From the NCBI GenBank assembly GCA_965242525.1, contig CBDESP010000001.1:1-11084 (forward strand): a DNA stretch of 11,084 nt, read 5' to 3'. This document shows, one piece after another, positions 4,298-11,051 of this stretch; the stretch's first letter is position 1; every line of letters begins with the position of its first letter. This DNA comes from an uncultured Candidatus Binatia bacterium. Lineage in GTDB: Bacteria > Desulfobacterota > Binatia > UBA9968 > JAJDTQ01. The position numbers and the translations under genes were made by a program. Under the pieces are notes generated by a model. The model was not told the origin of the DNA. It did not search any database and saw only the letters and a list, made by a program, of their open reading frames with translations.

Positions 4298-5707
4298 TCA
4301 CCGTAGATACTGGCACAGGCCCCGGCGCAGGTAGCGGCCGTCGCCGGGGCGGCCCAGGTAGCGGCCGCCGTCGATGACGATGCGGCCCCTCGACATCACC
4401 GTGTCCACCCCGCCGGTGACCTCAATGCCCTCATAGGCGGAGTGGTCGATGTTCATGTGGTGGTTGTCGGCGCTTATCGTCCAGCGCCGGGCCGGGTCGT
4501 AGATCACGATGTCGGCGTCGGCGCCGGGGGCGATCACCCCTTTGCGGGGGTACAGGCCCATCATCCGGGCCGGGGTGGTGGAGCACAGCTCCACCCAGCG
4601 GGCCAGGCCGATCTCGCCGTTCACCACGCCCTGGTAGATCATGTCCATGCGGTGCTCCACCCCGCCGATCCCGTTGGGGATGGCCCGGAAGTCGCTGCGG
4701 CCCATCTCCTTCTGCTCCTTCATGCAGAACGGGCAGTGGTCGGTGGCCACCACGGCCAGGTCGTTGGTGCGCAGCCCCTTCCACAGCTCGTCTTGGTGGT
4801 GCTCGTGGCGGGAGCGCAGCGGGGTGGAGCAGACGTAGGCCGCGCCCTCGAACCCGGGCCGGCCGAGGTGGTCCTCCAGGCTGAAGTAGAGGTACTGGGG
4901 GCAGGTCTCGGCGAACACGTTGGCGCCCTGGTCCCGGGCGGCGGCCACCTGCTCTAGGGCCTGCTTGGCCGACAGATGCACGATGTACAGCGGGCAGGCC
5001 CCCACCCGGGCCAACTGGACGGCCCGGTGGGTGGCCTCGGCCTCCAGCTCGGCCCGGCGCACGTAGCCGTGGTTGACCGGGTCGGTCTCGCCCCGCTCGA
5101 AGGCCTGCTCGGCCAGCACGTCGATGGCCAGGCCGTTCTCGGCGTGCATCATGATCAGCCCGCCGTTGCCGGCCGCCTGCTGCATGGCCCGCAGGATCTG
5201 GCCGTCGTCGGACATCAGCACGCCGGGGTAGGCCATGAACAGCTTGAAGCTGGTGATGCCCTCGTTCACCAGCAGGTCCATCTCCTTGAGGGAGTCGTTG
5301 TCGACGCCGCCGATGATCATGTGGAAGCCGTAGTCGATGGCGCAGCGGCCCTCGGCTTGGGCCATCCGCTGGTCGAGGCACTCCCGCACGTTCTCGCCGT
5401 AGTTCTGGGTGGCGAAGTCCACGATGGTGGTGGTGCCGCCCCAGGCCGCGGCCCGGGTGCCGGTCTCGAAGTCGTCGGCCGACACCGTGCCCATGATCGG
5501 GATCTCCATGTGGGTGTGGACGTCGACCCCGCCGGGCACCACCAGCTTCCCGGCGGCGTCGATGACCTCCGCGCCGGCTTCGGCGGCGGCGGCGATGTCG
5601 CTGCCGGGCCACAGCACCGCCTCCACCCGCTCGCCGGCGACCAGCACCTCGGCCCGGTCGGCCCCGGTGGCGGACACCACGGTCCCGCCTTTGATCAGCG
5701 TCGCCAC
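4298..5707 (-). CDS. hydA: Dihydropyrimidinase / D-hydantoinase
   Basis: GTG at 5707 with AGGAGG 5 nt upstream. Metal ligands DVHTH, carbamylated Lys in SFKLFMAY, MHAENG, IVHLS and ATDHCPF; also AAAWGGTTT and IPNGIGGVEHRM. 469 aa. Confidence 0.95.
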   Translation of the reverse strand: MATLIKGGTVVSATGADRAEVLVAGERVEAVLWPGSDIAAAAEAGAEVIDAAGKLVVPGGVDVHTHMEIPIMGTVSADDFETGTRAAAWGGTTTIVDFATQNYGENVRECLDQRMAQAEGRCAIDYGFHMIIGGVDNDSLKEMDLLVNEGITSFKLFMAYPGVLMSDDGQILRAMQQAAGNGGLIMMHAENGLAIDVLAEQAFERGETDPVNHGYVRRAELEAEATHRAVQLARVGACPLYIVHLSAKQALEQVAAARDQGANVFAETCPQYLYFSLEDHLGRPGFEGAAYVCSTPLRSRHEHHQDELWKGLRTNDLAVVATDHCPFCMKEQKEMGRSDFRAIPNGIGGVEHRMDMIYQGVVNGEIGLARWVELCSTTPARMMGLYPRKGVIAPGADADIVIYDPARRWTISADNHHMNIDHSAYEGIEVTGGVDTVMSRGRIVIDGGRYLGRPGDGRYLRRGLCQYLR

Positions 5708-6894
5708 ATCCGCCTCCTCTTGCGGGGTGTCGGGTCCGGGCTCGGCGGTGATGGTACCTCTCGCCGGCCCAGCATCACATCGAGGTTGAACCGGTCCCGG
5801 GCGGCCCGGGCGGGGTTGCTGGCGACGTCGATCCCGCGGTCGTCGTCGATTTCTCCGGTCAGCCCCTCGGGAGCGCCGAGAGGAACGGCGGGAACGGGGG
5901 CGAACACGTCCGACAGCCACAGCGTGCCCTCGGCCGCGAAGCCGCGCAGCATGGTCACCGACCCGTCGGCCAGCACGCTCACATATCCCTCGGTGGTCAA
6001 AAAGCCCGCCCAGCTCAGATGCACGGCGTCGTAGTGCTCGGCCGCGGCCCGCCAGTCCACGCCGACGAGCCGGGGCGGACTCGGGTAAGCGGCGTGCTGA
6101 CCCGGCACGGCCAACAGCTCGCGGACCTGCGCCTCCTCGTCATATTTGGGCGGCCGATTCCGCGGCAACAGGCCGGACAGCCAGCCGAGGAGTCCAGGTC
6201 TTGCCAGAACGAAGAGCGCCACCGGGGTCGGGCGACGAGACAACCTCAGCCGCCACCGCCGCGACGGGCCGGGCGACTTGAACTCCCAGGTGCCATATGA
6301 CTTGTACATGTCCGCGTCGGTGTCGGGCCATCTCTCGACCAGATCGACCCAGTCCGAGGGGCGGTGAATCTCCTTCACCTTGGGCCGGCCTTCGATCTCG
6401 ACGCGCCAGCGGCTCGTCGGAGGCGGAAACAGCTCCCAGGCGCTCAAGACATCATCGTGGGCTTCCGCCGGGGGGCGGGTCGCGGTCCACAACAAGGAGC
6501 CGTCGGCTTGCCGGTGCGGGGCCGTGTCCGTGGTCCACCACTCCTGGCCGCCCGGGTCCATCGGCTCATGCAGGATGTCGCCGAATTTCCGGACCAGGGC
6601 TTCCGCGATCGGCAGCCTGCTCTCGGCGTTCCGATAGGCGGCCGCAACCTCACCGGGGGCGATGGGATTCCAAGGGCCGGCATAGTCTTCGCCCGCGCTC
6701 ACTGCAAGCGAGCGGACCTCGTCGACGGAGGCGGCCCAAACCCAATCGACGGCGCGTTCGACATCCTCGGGGTCGGAGCCGCCGCCCCCAAAAAAGTGGG
6801 AAGACTTCCGGTTCTGGACTCTCGACTCGATGGCGGCCAGCGTCACGACCCCCATCGGGGCCTCCATCAGCGCCTCTATTGATCCCGAGATCAT
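5695..6894 (-). CDS. Uncharacterised protein, downstream paralogue (copy B)
   Basis: Long ORF alignable along its length with copy A (QEWWTTD, KEIHRPSDWV, VDW.AAAEHYDAVH.SWAGFLTTEGY). Start is uncertain (ATG 6894 or 6867; no RBS seen) and it may be fused to copy A. Its stop overlaps the hydA start by 13 nt. Confidence 0.75.
   Translation of the reverse strand: MISGSIEALMEAPMGVVTLAAIESRVQNRKSSHFFGGGGSDPEDVERAVDWVWAASVDEVRSLAVSAGEDYAGPWNPIAPGEVAAAYRNAESRLPIAEALVRKFGDILHEPMDPGGQEWWTTDTAPHRQADGSLLWTATRPPAEAHDDVLSAWELFPPPTSRWRVEIEGRPKVKEIHRPSDWVDLVERWPDTDADMYKSYGTWEFKSPGPSRRWRLRLSRRPTPVALFVLARPGLLGWLSGLLPRNRPPKYDEEAQVRELLAVPGQHAAYPSPPRLVGVDWRAAAEHYDAVHLSWAGFLTTEGYVSVLADGSVTMLRGFAAEGTLWLSDVFAPVPAVPLGAPEGLTGEIDDDRGIDVASNPARAARDRFNLDVMLGRREVPSPPSPDPTPRKRRRMWRR
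5713..5758 (-). promoter_or_regulatory. RBS and candidate -10 element for hydA
   Basis: AGGAGG at 5718-5713. GGTACCAT (TANNNT at 5756-5751) lies about 45 nt upstream of the start codon. No convincing -35. Confidence 0.45.
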
Positions 6895-7131
6895 CGCCGC
6901 AGGCACCCTCTTTGGTCAGGCCCTCGGGGGCATCAAGAGGGGATGCGGGGACCGGGGCGAACCGATCGGTCAGCCACAGCGTGCTTTCGCTGGCGAAGCC
7001 GCGCATCATGGTCACCGACCCGTCCGCCAGCTCGCTCACATATCCCTCGGTGGTCAAGAAGCCCGCCCAGCTCACATGCACGGCATCGTAGTGCTCGGCC
7101 GCGGCGTGCCAGTCCACCCCGACGAGCCGGG
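5914..7131. repeat. Most conserved block of the tandem gene duplication: 5914-6074 vs 6971-7131
   Basis: Ungapped alignment with offset 1057 nt; 14 mismatches in 161 nt by manual count (about 91%). Confidence 0.9.
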
Positions 7132-7900
7132 TCGGCACCAGATAAGCCGCGTGCTGTCCCGGCGTATTCAGAAGCTCGCGGTTGTGAGCGTCGGGGTCGT
7201 GCGGGTCGCGCCGGAGCCGCCGCCGCCTGGTCGACAGCAGCCGGGACAGAAGTGGCCGCGGGGTGGGTGGTCGGGGTGATTTGAATGCCCAGTTGTCGCC
7301 AAATCGCTCGCACATAGGTGCGTCGGCGTCGGGCCATCGCTCGACCAGTTTCACCCAATCCGAGGGGCGGTGTATCTCCTTCACCCTGGGCCGACCTTCG
7401 ATCTCAACCTGCCAGCGACTCGTTGGGGGATAATGGAACTCCCAGGCGAGCAGGATTTCGTCGTGGACTTCCGGCGGGAGACGTGACACGGTCCACAGCA
7501 GGCCGCCGATATCAAGGCTTCCCGATACGCGAGGCGACTGGTCCGTGGTCCACCACTCCTGACCCTCTGTATCCATCGGCGCATGCAGGACATCACCGCA
7601 TTTCTGCCCGACCGCAGCAGCGATCGGCCGCCGTATCTCGGCGCATCGGTAGTAGGCCGCAAGGCCGACGGGAGCGTCGGAGTTCCAAGGGCTGACATGG
7701 CTGTCGCCGACCCACACCGCCAGTCTGAGCACTTCGCCGACAGAAGCTTCCTCGACCCAATTGACGGCGAGTTCGACGGCTTCGGCGTCGGATTCAGCGT
7801 CCCTCCGCCTCCATCTCGGCCATGCCTGCGACTCGATCTCGGCCAGCAGCGCCACCCCCAGGGGGGCTTCTGTCAACGCTTCGACGAAGTCCACGGTCAC
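6650..7900 (-). CDS. Uncharacterised protein, upstream paralogue (copy A); residues after about 6880 are out-of-frame read-through into copy B
   Basis: Likely start GTG 7900 (VTVDFVEALTEAPLGV), matching copy B IEALMEAPMGV. Homology to copy B ends at DDLGI (6881). Confidence 0.75.
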   Translation of the reverse strand: MTVDFVEALTEAPLGVALLAEIESQAWPRWRRRDAESDAEAVELAVNWVEEASVGEVLRLAVWVGDSHVSPWNSDAPVGLAAYYRCAEIRRPIAAAVGQKCGDVLHAPMDTEGQEWWTTDQSPRVSGSLDIGGLLWTVSRLPPEVHDEILLAWEFHYPPTSRWQVEIEGRPRVKEIHRPSDWVKLVERWPDADAPMCERFGDNWAFKSPRPPTPRPLLSRLLSTRRRRLRRDPHDPDAHNRELLNTPGQHAAYLVPTRLVGVDWHAAAEHYDAVHVSWAGFLTTEGYVSELADGSVTMMRGFASESTLWLTDRFAPVPASPLDAPEGLTKEGACGDDLGINRGADGGPDGGRDAGRHRVESPEPEVFPLFWGRRLRPRGCRTRRRLGLGRLRRRGPLACSERGRRLCRPLESHRPR

Positions 7901-7908
7901 CGACCGCC

Positions 7909-7914
7909 ACCCTA
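7909..7914 (-). promoter_or_regulatory. Candidate -10 element (TAGGGT) for a leaderless copy A transcript
   Basis: TANNNT hexamer 8 nt upstream of GTG 7900, with no Shine-Dalgarno. Leaderless starts are common in Actinobacteria. Confidence 0.4.
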
Positions 7915-7926
7915 GCCGACGAGCGG

Positions 7927-7997
7927 GCAGGGGCACACTGTGCGGGGTGACGGTCTGCTCATCGGGTCGCCGCTGGTCGGCCTGGCGCAGGTCGAAC
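7927..7997 (-). repeat. Degenerate direct-repeat copy (gene fragment) of 8461-8530 from the Fe-S gene
   Basis: gcaggggcacactgtgcggggtgacggtctgctcatcgggtcgccgctggtcggcctggcgcaggtcgaac vs gtaggagcacacggtgcggg-tgacggtctgctcttcgggccgccactgttcggcctggcgcaggtcgaac: 7 mismatches plus 1 indel in 71 columns. Encodes FDLRQADQRRPDEQTVT vs FDLRQAEQWRPEEQTVT. Confidence 0.92.
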
Positions 7998-8021
7998 AAG
8001 AAGGGAGATATATTCGCTTAG

Positions 8022-8360
8022 ATGCAACGCGTTGTGTTCAAAGTCTTGATAGTTGGAACAGCAATACTTTTGCTTTCCTTCGGGGGAGCTATCTGGGCCG
8101 CGCCGGTGACGATACCTCTTCTGATCTATGCGATTTTGCGAGTTGGACTGACCTGTCGCTGGCTTATTACCGCTACGATGATTCTCGCTTTGACTGCAAC
8201 CCAGTGTACGTGGGCGATCATGTATGTCACTGTGGGAGAATCCAACCCGGCAATATGGATAGCCCCTATCGCAACATTTACAGTATTTGTTACAGCAATA
8301 ACTTGGGTTACTCGCCGGGTTATTCGCCGTGGACGTATTGCCAGCCGAAGCGGCCTTTGA
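8022..8360 (+). CDS. Small hypothetical integral membrane protein (about 4 hydrophobic segments), low GC
   Basis: 112 aa and strongly hydrophobic, with a basic C-tail. About 47-48% GC in two 60-nt samples against about 70% in the flanks. AAGGGAG lies 14 nt upstream. Overlaps the convergent Fe-S gene by 41 nt. Confidence 0.7.
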   Translation: MQRVVFKVLIVGTAILLLSFGGAIWAAPVTIPLLIYAILRVGLTCRWLITATMILALTATQCTWAIMYVTVGESNPAIWIAPIATFTVFVTAITWVTRRVIRRGRIASRSGL

Positions 8361-9229
8361 TGCACAGGTGGCCGCTGGTGACCGAGTGGTCCGACGGCGA
8401 GGTTACCTTGACTATGCGCTCGTCCTGCACGTGCAGTTCTAAGTTGCAGCCCACCCCGCAGTAGGAGCACACGGTGCGGGTGACGGTCTGCTCTTCGGGC
8501 CGCCACTGTTCGGCCTGGCGCAGGTCGAACTCGGTTTTGAACTGCAGCGCCCCGGTGGGGCACACCCCCACGCAGTTGCCGCAGTAGACGCAGGCCGAGT
8601 CGGGCAGGGCCACGTCGAACTCGGTGGAGATGCGGGCGTCGAAGCCCCGGCCCGCCACCGCGATGGCGTAGGTGTGCTGGGCGTCGTCGCCGCAGGCCTC
8701 CACGCACTTGTAGCACAGCACGCACTTCTCGTAGTCCCGCACGTACAGCTCGTCCTGCACCTTCACCGGCTCCCGATATCCGCTCCACCGGGTGGTCCTC
8801 GTCGGCGTAGCGGCCGGGGTCGGCCCCGTAGTGCTCCATCCAGGCGTGCAGCGACTCGGCCTGGCTCAGGTCCACCCCCGACCCCAGGAACTCCAGCACC
8901 ATCCGGCGGCTGTGGCGGACCCGCTCGGTGTCGGTGCGCACCACCATGCCGTCCTCCGCCGGGCGGGAGCAGGCCGGCACCAGGGTGCGGGCCCCCTCCA
9001 GCTCCACCACGCACACCCGGCAGACGTTGACCGGGGTAAGGTTCTCGGCCCAGCACAGGGTGGGGGTGCGGACCCCGGCCTGCTCGCAGGCGGCGTGGAT
9101 GGTGGACCCGGCGGGCGCCTCCACCTCCCGCCCGTCGATGGTGAGCTTGACCGGAACCGCGGGCGGCGAGCCGTTCGAGGCATCGCCCCGGCTGGGGCCC
9201 GCCCCTGACCCCGGCGCCGAATCGCCCAT
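8320..9229 (-). CDS. Poly-iron-sulfur protein like the NuoG / formate dehydrogenase alpha N-terminus (2Fe-2S + 2x4Fe-4S + molybdopterin-enzyme Fe4S4 domain); one +1 frameshift near 8775
   Basis: TLC..VCRVC..PAC (2Fe-2S) in ORF 9232. After the shift at CGG ATA T CGG GAG come CVLCYKCVEAC, CVYCGNCVGVCP and CSYCGVGC...LCIKGRFG in ORF 8766. About 302 aa when corrected. Start overlaps the upstream stop (TGATG). Confidence 0.85.
8461..8530 (-). repeat. In-gene copy of the 70-bp direct repeat (partner of 7927-7997)
   Basis: See the alignment above; the copies are 534 nt apart. Confidence 0.92.
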
Positions 9230-11051
9230 CACGTCCCTCCGCCGCTTCGGGCCCCCGCCAGGCCCAAGTCCAGCGCCGAGCGCACGGCGGAGGCAGCGGT
9301 GTGGCCCAGGCCGCAGATGGAGGCGTCGCCCATCACCTTAGCCACGTCGTCGAGCATCTCCCGACGGCCGGCCGACAGCTCCCCCCGCTCGGCCATGCGC
9401 ACCCAGCGCCTCGTGCTGGCGGACCGTGCCCACCCGGCAGGGCACGCACTGGCCGCACGACTCGTGGCGGAAGAACTCGGCGATGCGCACCAGCACCGGG
9501 GTCATGTCCACGCCGGTGTCGAAGGCCATCACCACCCCCGAGCCCAGGGTGGTGCCGGCGGCTCGGGTGGTCCTCCAGGGTCAGGGGCAGGTCCAGCGAG
9601 TCCGGCCCCACGAACGAGCCGGCCGCGCCCCCCATGAGCACGGCCTGCAGCTCCCCCGTCCCGGTGATCCCCCCGGCCAGCTCCAGCACCTCCCCCAGTC
9701 TGGTCCCGAACGCCACCTCGTAGAGGCCGGGGCTCCGCACCCGGCCCGACAGGCACAGCAGCTTGGTGCCGGGGGACCGCTCCGTGCCCCTGGCCCGGTA
9801 GGCCTCGGGGCCGTCGGTGACGATGTCGAGCACGTTGATCAGGGTCTCGGGGTTGTTGACCGCGGTGGGCTGGCCGAACAGGCCGTGGGTGGTGGGGAAC
9901 GGCGGCTTGTTGCGGGGCTCGCCCCGGAACCCCTCCAGCGAGTTGAACAGAGCCGTCTCCTCGCCGCATATGTAGGCCCCGGCCCCCCGCCAGACGGCGA
10001 TGTCGAAGGTCTGGCCGCTGTCGGCCGCGTCGTCGCCGAGCAGCCCGGCTGCTCGGGCCTGGTCGACCGCGCCCTGGAGTCGGGCGGTGGCCAGCGGGTA
10101 CTCGCCCCGGATGTAGATCCACCCCTGGGCGGCGCCGACGGCCAGCCCGGCGATGGTGAGCGACTCGATCACCGCGAACGGGTCCTGCTCCATGACGATG
10201 CGGTCCTTGAAGGTGCCGGGCTCGGACTCGTCGCAGTTGGCCACCACGTGCTTGGGCCGCCCGGTCTCGGCCGCCACCGCCCGCCATTTGACCCCGGTGG
10301 GGAAGGCGGCCCCGCCCCGGCCCGACAGGCCCGAGTCGGCCACCGCGGCCAGCACCGCCTCGGGTCCCATCTCCACCGCCCGGGCCAGGGCCTCATAGCC
10401 GCCGCAGGCCCGGTAGGACTCCAGCGAGGTGGGGTCGGCCACCCCGATCCGGCGCAGCAGTCGCAAGCCGGGATCGCCGTGCTGAGGCAGCCGGTAGGCG
10501 CGGGCACCGTCGCCGTGGCCACTGTTGCCGTCGCCAGCACCGGCGCCGCCGTTTTCGTCGGCCGGCACCCGGTCAGGGCCGCCCACCGCCTGCACGAATA
10601 AGGCCGGAGCCCGCTCGCACTGGCCCAGGCACGGGCTGTGATGAACGTGGGCACCGGATGCGGCCACCGAGGCGGCCAGCTCCTCGCAGCCGGAGATCTG
10701 GCAGGCGGCGTCCACGCAGACGTGGACGGTGTCGCCGTCGTGGTCGGGCGCCTCGGTGCGGAACAGGTCGTAGAAGGAGGCCACTCCGTAGGCCTCGGCC
10801 GGGGGGACCAGCAGCACCTCGCCGATGTAGTTGATCCCGCCGGGGCTGATCCAGCCCGCCGCGTTCTGCAGGCCGTGCAAGGCCGGGAGCAGGTAGTGGC
10901 GGCGCTGGTGGCGGCGGTCCGTGCCCCCCACCACCAGCCGCTCGGTGCGGTGCTGGACCACCGGGTCGGCGCCGCAGCGCTTCAGCGCCGCGTCCACCGC
11001 GGCCCGCTCGACCTCGGTGGCCCGCTCGGCCCCGAGGTGGACGTCAGCCAC
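9229..11051 (-). CDS. Fused NuoE-NuoF-like (FdsG-FdsB/HoxF-type) NAD(P)H-binding FMN/Fe-S flavoprotein; two +1 frameshifts (about 9570 and about 9403)
   Basis: NuoE 2Fe-2S motif CVDAAC...CLGQC; NuoF motifs GRGGAAFPTG, NCDESEPGTFKD, YICGEETAL and NNPET. Removing one base at 9569-9570 gives LEDTRAAGTTLGSGVVMAFD..ESCGQCVPCRVG. Removing one at 9402-9404 gives HEALVRMAERGE..DASICGLGHTAASAVRSAL..GGT-stop (9231-9229). About 606 aa when corrected. Confidence 0.88.

Follow-up and report, generated by a model that had tools for sequence, protein, structure and literature searches.

How does a single small gene come to lie between two copies of part of another gene when no recombinase is encoded alongside it? 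The question is raised by the window analysed here, a complete contig (C2) of 11,084 bp from a seven-contig genome of 4.23 Mb, in which an iron-sulphur (Fe-S) protein gene runs into a gene of low guanine-plus-cytosine (GC) content for a small membrane protein, the cargo gene, followed by a second copy of a fragment of the Fe-S gene. The copy within the Fe-S gene is termed R2 and the outlying copy R1, and together they delimit a unit of 534 bp (Table 1). We lean, with a little better than even confidence, towards the view that an insertion independent of any recombinase once took place at the Fe-S gene's 3' end and that this unit is its old scar. It is a fixed old haplotype without sign of activity.

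The repeat was defined by MAFFT alignment and by a blastn search with the window as query against the genome's full 4.23 Mb, in which no third copy was found. R1 (69 nucleotides, nt) and R2 (68 nt) are 89.9 % identical over 69 alignment columns (E = 4.8e-17), 61 of 68 bases being the same in the ungapped comparison; six substitutions and one indel separate them, the latter an additional base of R1 in a G run near 7944. Both copies are longer than the 30 bp that marks direct repeats of a long target duplication, and their starts lie 533-534 nt apart. Between them are the last 143 nt of the Fe-S gene (the tail) on the minus strand together with an open reading frame (ORF) of 112 amino acids (aa), the cargo gene, on the plus strand. 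The two genes overlap by 41 nt, the final 13 cargo codons being the antisense of the Fe-S tail. The GC fraction falls from 0.72 (7900-7999) to 0.46 (8000-8099), is 0.47 at 8250-8349 and reaches 0.63 at 8300-8399, which places the low-GC block between 7998 and approximately 8319 with its left border exactly at the edge of R1. No recombinase, transposase or integrase domain was detected by Pfam in the 14 window ORFs scanned. An earlier note on this DNA had described direct repeats of about 70 bp and about 89 % identity bracketing the Fe-S tail and a low-GC gene, a 534-bp unit, a drop in GC at 7998 and a resemblance to attL/attR sites with no recombinase in view. This description holds, except that its repeat coordinates (7927-7997 and 8461-8530) were 2 nt too generous at one end; the convergence and overlap of the two genes, a frameshift in R1 and a private frameshift near 8772 had been overlooked.

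Relatives of the genome to which the contig had been assigned (G000) proved useless as a comparison set. Forty of them match the region's DNA at only 66-84 % identity and in short pieces, and the A family, an unnamed protein family represented in the window by two tandem paralogues (A' and A) next to R1, was absent from all 40 as well as from 400 genomes of G000's class. In contrast, locus L013 of G403, a Candidatus Aldehydirespiratoraceae metagenome-assembled genome, is syntenic with the entire window at 86-92 % nucleotide identity, and the Fe-S gene is present in 102 of the 107 genomes of G403's family at up to 97 % identity. Contig C2 (GC 0.70; main contig 0.67) is therefore probably misbinned, its probable source being an organism of G403's family. 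A scan of all GTDB species with the A-family alignment returned 76 loci (L012-L087), almost all of them in Acidimicrobiia.

The structure itself is real. Logan contigs from four runs, belonging to four studies, were aligned to window positions 7300-9100, and in all four runs single contigs bridge R1, the cargo gene and R2 at approximately 93-99 % identity to the window. Run X1 may be the window's own source sample; X17, X2 and X4 differ from the window by 4-7 %, so the arrangement is older than the split of these strains. Two clusters of homologous cargo proteins, P0057 and P0058 (78-83 % identical to that of the window), have the C-terminus ...IRRGRIASRSG(L/P), a reading of the Fe-S tail's antisense strand, and the convergent junction is thus present in further assemblies. 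A chimeric join or collapsed repeat in a small, error-prone contig might be suspected, given that the window is a separate 11-kb contig whose private homopolymer single-base indels (8772, 7944) suggest raw-read errors. Yet the parts have the same order in contigs of all four other runs, and the two further protein clusters encode the same junction. We regard the chance of an artefact as negligible; misassembly, which the earlier note had named as a danger, is refuted for the architecture, and the single-base indels stay doubtful. One of these, a 1-nt insertion in a C run near 8772, splits the window's Fe-S gene in three-frame translations. It is missing from the contigs of all four other runs and from G403, G443 and G432, and likely reflects a private pseudogenisation or else a homopolymer error in this small contig. 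At the insert junction, 12 nt of the Fe-S stop-codon region are duplicated in tandem; the window and X2 share this duplication, which is missing from X1, X17, X4, G403 and G443 and lengthens the C-terminus of the cargo protein by four residues.

The same spot was compared in relatives. In G403, the closest of them, the Fe-S gene is followed by a small gene pointing the same way, then by A', a 97-aa C-terminal remnant of A and an amidohydrolase, the cargo allele occupying the same place as in the window in the opposite orientation; G403 has no second R copy and no repeat flanking its cargo allele. In G443 an internally deleted A remnant and then a full A gene come after the Fe-S gene, without the small gene and without R1. 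Neither the small gene nor R1 was found within 1.5 kb behind the Fe-S gene in 18 further genomes, and G403, G443 and 18 other loci have R only once. Across the family, 102 of 107 genomes match window positions 7850-8600 only from the Fe-S gene's end onwards, and the amidohydrolase of G432 is 227 kb distant. For the cargo gene, the window and G403 are separated by approximately 1.0 synonymous substitutions per synonymous site (dS), whereas A' gives 0.39 and the flanking genes (Fe-S, NuoF, amidohydrolase and aldehyde dehydrogenase) 0.08-0.18. The cargo gene thus has a history of its own, foreign and deep-branching. This gap rules out a recent in-situ inversion of the cargo gene, and the two arrangements are thus old haplotypes or independent acquisitions. 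The event is accordingly one of at least two old arrangements at this spot and not a recent island. The ratio of non-synonymous to synonymous rates (dN/dS) for the cargo gene is 0.31, which indicates that the ORF is a real coding gene.

R1 is a relic in decay. In a comparison with 20 relatives it matched R2 and G403 at 61 of 68 positions, G443 at 60 and the 18 others at no more than 56, and it derives from the Fe-S gene of the window's own clade or a very close allele. Four of its six substitutions relative to R2 fall at third codon positions (two synonymous, two Glu to Asp), the others being one Ser to Pro and one Trp to Arg; four or more third-position changes of six would arise by chance with P = 0.10, which is not significant. 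The earlier note, which had counted seven substitutions, was right about the four third-position changes and the Ser to Pro replacement, but its interpretation of R1 as another allele did not survive: R1 is frameshifted, its Trp and Ser changes fall on residues that all 20 relatives conserve without exception, and the 'CP' motif that it would encode occurs in none of the 20. Indels in R1 also vary among strains (7944, 7946, 7953, 7956, 7962), the additional base being missing in X2 and X4 and different R1 indels being present in X17. The frameshift, the changes at invariant residues and the strain-variable indels together amount to neutral decay and not to a second working allele. The six substitutions correspond to 0.09 per site, the same order as the Fe-S gene's dS in the window-G403 comparison (0.09), and this likewise speaks for an old event. 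At its opposite edge R1 adjoins the leader motif of an A-family unit, and the displaced gene piece that the earlier note expected to have been left behind is absent. As the tail is found behind R2 and not behind R1, a second event, deletion or rearrangement, is needed under any model.

The cargo gene belongs to a family of membrane proteins of about 105 aa with seven homologues at 62-83 % identity in a large protein collection. Five of these clusters (62-64 % identical) end in ...RR(P/A)YS, as in G403. A family profile matched eight of the 107 genomes at E <= 1e-23, plus one marginal match, in unrelated contexts that include peptidase M1, glyoxalase and glutamine amidotransferase (GATase), RCC1 repeats and a hydrolase, and most copies have a GC content below that of their surroundings. 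Genome G508 holds one member of the family inside a low-GC insert of 380 bp, placed between convergent glyoxalase and GATase genes (L112, 1385-1798) and flanked by a 19-nt direct repeat of the last codons of the GATase gene. The site is empty in six genomes (G502, G501, G507, G500, G492 and G496), the flanking genes abutting or overlapping by 12-22 nt. The GATase protein ends in ...AAAAD at the empty site and in ...AAAAAWRV in G508, and the target thus receives its new last codons from the insert. In G502 a cargo-family copy 89 % identical to that of G508 lies 12 kb from that genome's own empty site, the region shared by the two copies comprising only the ORF and approximately 20 nt. Other DNA has entered the same junction: G504, G509 and G497 contain a 639-bp ribbon-helix-helix (RHH) and PemK/MazF pair with an 11-nt repeat, G505 has that pair together with a DDE transposase, and G499 a low-GC insert of 728 bp. 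The convergent glyoxalase/GATase junction (loci L121-L131) is an insertion hotspot at which each documented insert comes with a short duplicated target. In G492 and G500, short tandem duplications of the stop region occur without any insert, resembling the 12-nt duplication of the window. The suggestion in the earlier note of a general way of loading cargo genes fits this hotspot, which holds a toxin-antitoxin pair in other genomes.

If the 534-bp unit is the scar of an insertion at the Fe-S gene end, the inserted DNA would have been a minimal one-gene cassette of about 320 bp, of low GC content and encoding a small membrane protein and no mobility gene. Its insertion would have duplicated part of the 3' region of the target, as in an 'insertion with long target duplication', giving the topology of a Campbell-type single-crossover pop-in. 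The upstream copy, R2 and the tail, would have been retained in the working gene, and the downstream copy, from a duplication of approximately 210 nt, would have been reduced to the 69 nt of R1 by a later rearrangement that fused it to the A-family unit, after which R1 would have decayed neutrally. An enzyme-free route could have been provided by host recombination or by template switching at a hairpin on the repeat edge. We infer this order of events, the enzyme-free mechanism and the secondary deletion from the arrangement of the parts. The hairpin at the outer edge of the repeat would be a plausible site of breakage or template switching. At R2 it is followed on the plus strand by a T-rich run, approximately 150 nt downstream of the cargo gene stop, and could terminate the antisense transcript of the cargo gene or mark a fragile site. 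The fold of the whole repeat was no different from that of shuffled sequences (z -0.1 to -1.45), and a promoter scan returned a single weak antisense match inside the cargo gene, which is uninformative.

Several observations weigh against this account. The insert adjoins R1 directly, but the 143-nt tail separates R2 from the low-GC DNA, a position that fits only a duplication of about 210 nt with a later deletion or a tail supplied by the donor. No displaced tail lies behind R1, so the second event that must be assumed is itself unobserved. The cargo allele of G403 has no visible flanking repeat, and insertion of the family thus does not always leave one. The repeat lengths at the different sites (11, 19 and 69 nt) vary widely and none shows the mechanism directly. 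A clean insertion with empty sites was documented in one case only, that of G508; the earlier note had looked to relatives for an empty allele, and the six found there belong to this sister insertion, no strict empty site having been found for the window's locus, since G443 is without cargo but rearranged downstream and G403 has the other cargo allele. For the second copy, in G502 (L111), a clean empty site was likewise not found, the comparison showing just a variable spacer (846 nt in G497 versus 540 nt). The differences between the G508 and G502 copies are spread over the three codon positions as 11, 8 and 13, indicating little coding constraint.

The earlier note had favoured replacement of the target's 3' end. 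In this version of events a fragment or circle carrying the cargo with its own R and tail recombined within R with a tail-less recipient, thereby restoring the gene and leaving R1 as the recipient's stump. Over the last 447 nt of the Fe-S gene, the tail does hold every window-specific change (4 of 143 positions versus 0 of 304 before it), each from C to A or T and so matching the low-GC cargo; the G508 cassette does give its target new last codons, and R1 ends cleanly at the A-unit leader, as would a truncated recipient. This evidence is weak, however: the tail evolves approximately three times faster in G403 and G443 too (12 of 143 lineage-specific changes versus 8 of 304), the clustering has P of about 0.13 once this rate is allowed for, and the lineage-specific changes in the tail number 4, 3 and 5 in the window, G403 and G443, so that the window's tail is no outgroup to the other two. 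Its 7 differences in 143 nt from G403 are within the range of other flanking genes. Replacement would also require a viable ancestor whose Fe-S protein was without its last cluster domain, and the changes of R1 at invariant residues give no sign of a past working allele. We consider it unlikely, whilst still granting it some weight. R1 might otherwise be unrelated to the cargo and represent debris of the A array, left when unequal or illegitimate recombination brought an A unit into or beside a second Fe-S copy and deletions spared 69 nt. R1 does abut the conserved A-unit leader, the array has been rearranged repeatedly (tandem paralogues in the window, the deleted remnant of G443, the 97-aa remnant of G403), and A' is deeply diverged from the G403 copy (dS 0.39). 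Against this, the low-GC cargo DNA begins at exactly the base where R1 stops on its other side, R1 was accompanied by the cargo gene in every one of the four runs, and G403 and G443 have no R1 beside their A genes. We find this decidedly improbable.

An enzyme acting from elsewhere is more doubtful still. A recombinase or transposase encoded outside the contig could move the cassette, the repeats being attL and attR or the target-site duplication of a non-autonomous element; the family does occupy several sites, an rve integrase fragment lies approximately 0.8 kb from the insertion at L112, and a DDE transposase is present in the G505 hotspot. Nevertheless, the repeats flanking the window insertion (69 nt, from an Fe-S gene) and the G508 insertion (19 nt, from a GATase gene) are unrelated in sequence and unequal in length, the copies in G508 and G502 have just the ORF and about 20 nt in common, and the 11-kb contig encodes no such enzyme. 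Terminal inverted repeats, such as delimit a transposon or miniature inverted-repeat transposable element beside a short target duplication of constant size, were not found flanking the cargo gene (7998-8360). An integron cassette would end in an attC site and draw on an IntI/attI platform; the window encodes no integrase domain among the ORFs scanned. Unrelated repeats of varied length without inverted repeats argue against one dedicated recombinase. A broader proposal, which we put forward as a speculation and think rather improbable, is that minimal cassettes with the small membrane-protein genes of this family as cargo (a 20-nt leader and some 0.3 kb of ORF, lacking any stop region of their own) form a distinct class in sponge-associated Acidimicrobiales, repeatedly loaded at convergent gene 3' ends by a process of replication or repair, template switching at gene-end hairpins, duplicating from 11 to more than 69 nt and rewriting the C-termini of cargo and target. 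If true, these insertions would follow a general enzyme-free route of 'gene-end loading' and not be rare accidents, and the same hotspots would also take toxin-antitoxin pairs.

Table 1. Features of the 534-bp unit and its surroundings in the window, with metagenome contigs that bridge the unit
Feature	Position	Strand	Details
A, tandem paralogue of A'	5695..6906	-	55-57 % aa identity to A'; only a 97-aa remnant in G403
A', unnamed family of ~360-400-aa proteins of Acidimicrobiia	6650..7900	-	GTG start at 7900
Conserved leader of A-family unit	7901..7928	-	CTCGGC-TAGGGTG motif; joined directly to R1; same motif in G443 and L012
R1, non-coding decaying copy of Fe-S fragment	7929..7997	-	inside the 121-nt divergent spacer between cargo gene and A'
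Cargo gene leader	7998..8021	+	GGAG before ATG; left edge of low-GC insert, adjoins R1
Cargo gene, 112-aa hydrophobic small membrane protein	8022..8360	+	GC 0.49; convergent with Fe-S gene
12-nt tandem duplication of Fe-S stop-codon region at insert junction	8305..8328	-	polymorphic among strains
Fe-S gene, HoxU/NuoG-N-terminal-like	8320..9232	-	Pfam Fer2_4, two 4Fe-4S (Fer4), Molybdop_Fe4S4
Fe-S gene tail	8320..8462	-	Molybdop_Fe4S4 domain and stop codon; between R2 and low-GC insert
R2, functional in-gene repeat copy	8463..8530	-	codes FDLRQAEQWRPEEQTVTRTVCS; differs at 1/68 from G403 and 3/68 from G443
Hairpin, 10-bp stem, 3-nt loop	8508..8530 (R2 outer edge); also 7975-7997 (R1)	+	terminator-like match; DNA folds
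NuoE-NuoF fusion gene (diaphorase flavoprotein)	9333..11051	-	first operon gene in window; Pfam 2Fe-2S_thioredx, Complex1_51K, SLBB
Contig of run X1, record 1	7300-9100		20 letters other than the window's
Contig of run X17, record 3	7734-8643		63 letters other than the window's
Contig of run X2, record 9	7734-9100		55 letters other than the window's
Contig of run X4, record 10	7841-8642		38 letters other than the window's

The target gene encodes an Fe-S subunit with 2Fe-2S and 4Fe-4S cluster domains beside a NuoE/NuoF flavoprotein. Its NCBIfam matches to HoxU, NuoG and FeFe_hydrog_A6 were all under their cut-offs, and the gene was therefore assigned as 'like' these proteins and not as an equivalog. 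The natural length of the protein is approximately 295 aa with the C-terminus ...GWQYVHGE, an intact ORF of 295 aa being present in G403 and one of 297 aa in G432. A tblastn search with the C-terminal part of the window's protein covered residues 1-148 in 20 of 20 family loci, and a 71 %-identical homologue at L045 also stops right after the Fe4S4 domain. That the gene might be a formate dehydrogenase (FdhA/NuoG) truncated by the insert was ruled out, as all relatives checked share the ...YVHGE end. The cargo protein matched no Pfam, NCBIfam or Atlas family, and 117 pattern matches among JGI metagenome contigs included none related to it. The idea that the small membrane gene is a regular partner of the A family was rejected after a profile search of the 76 A-family loci, which found it at L013 only.

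Every large gene of the window is on the minus strand. The NuoE-NuoF fusion gene matched nuoF_fam and nuoE_fam of NCBIfam, both under cut-off, and is 91-92 % identical to that of G403 at the nucleotide level. The linker between its two parts carries a glycine/aspartate-rich repeat in G403 that is unalignable to the window (L013 6696-8696 versus window 9333-11051), and a tblastn alignment of the fusion to G403 breaks at residues 163 and 184. Further genes encode an amidohydrolase, an aldehyde dehydrogenase, a luciferase-like monooxygenase and a Rieske oxygenase, and an Rfam scan of the window returned zero matches. Proteins of the A family have 350-400 aa and the strongly conserved motifs HRPxDW and HLSWAGFLTxEGYV, and matched no Pfam, NCBIfam or Atlas family. 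Genomes often hold several copies, in tandem arrays with deleted remnants and with the conserved leader motif. The A' protein is 69-72 % identical to the G403 copy. The window's A' extends approximately 85 codons beyond the end of its relatives into the start of A (6650-6906), the last part being unalignable to the family, which suggests that its C-terminal part is out of register through a frameshift or another single-base error of the contig.

In sum, this locus, which belongs to an uncultured actinobacterial lineage associated with sponges, extends the small body of work on gene gain without mobile-element enzymes by one well-documented case. The case combines an orphan membrane-protein cargo, two ancient arrangements at one spot, a sister insertion with six empty sites and a hotspot shared with toxin-antitoxin pairs. 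It shows that insertions can change the last residues of both cargo and target, and how duplicated gene ends decay. The kind of insertion is already known, and no new element or mechanism is revealed.

In Campbell-type single-crossover insertion-duplication and in homology-facilitated illegitimate recombination, host recombination functions suffice. The unit has the corresponding topology of gene, repeat, new tail, cargo and repeat, and looks like attL/attR minus the integrase. It differs in that the displaced 3' end expected behind the second repeat is absent, in that 69 nt at approximately 90 % identity is short for RecA-dependent exchange, and in having no known circular or donor form. The minimal mobile elements of Neisseria (Saunders and Snyder 2002) are reportedly small cassettes swapped between conserved flanks by homologous recombination. 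They likewise have no mobility genes of their own and show alternative contents at one site, but are not defined by duplicated gene ends. Phages and islands that target tRNA and tmRNA genes are mentioned by Furuta, Abe and Kobayashi (2010; NAR 38:2428, PMC2853133) as targeting the 3' end of the gene and bringing a replacement end. As with such elements, a direct repeat of the 3' part of the target brackets the insert here and the target gene is functional; in contrast, there is no integrase and no shared attachment core, and the insert measures just 0.3-0.5 kb.

The closest parallel is provided by the insertions with long target duplication of the same article (PMC2853133), which have repeats of more than 30 bp that are single-copy in the empty-site genome and overlap a gene 3' end, a low GC content, no mobility gene, and restriction-modification genes as cargo. 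By comparison, the window's insert differs in carrying a single tiny membrane-protein gene and not a restriction-modification system, in the 143-nt tail that parts one repeat from the insert and the truncation of the other repeat, and in belonging to an uncultured sponge-associated actinobacterium without an exact empty site at the locus. The features in common with the insertions as described there are the lack of a mobility gene in the insert and of a recombinase close by, the lower GC content, repeats of more than 30 bp that are unique to the pair within the genome and single-copy in relatives, and the position at a gene 3' end.

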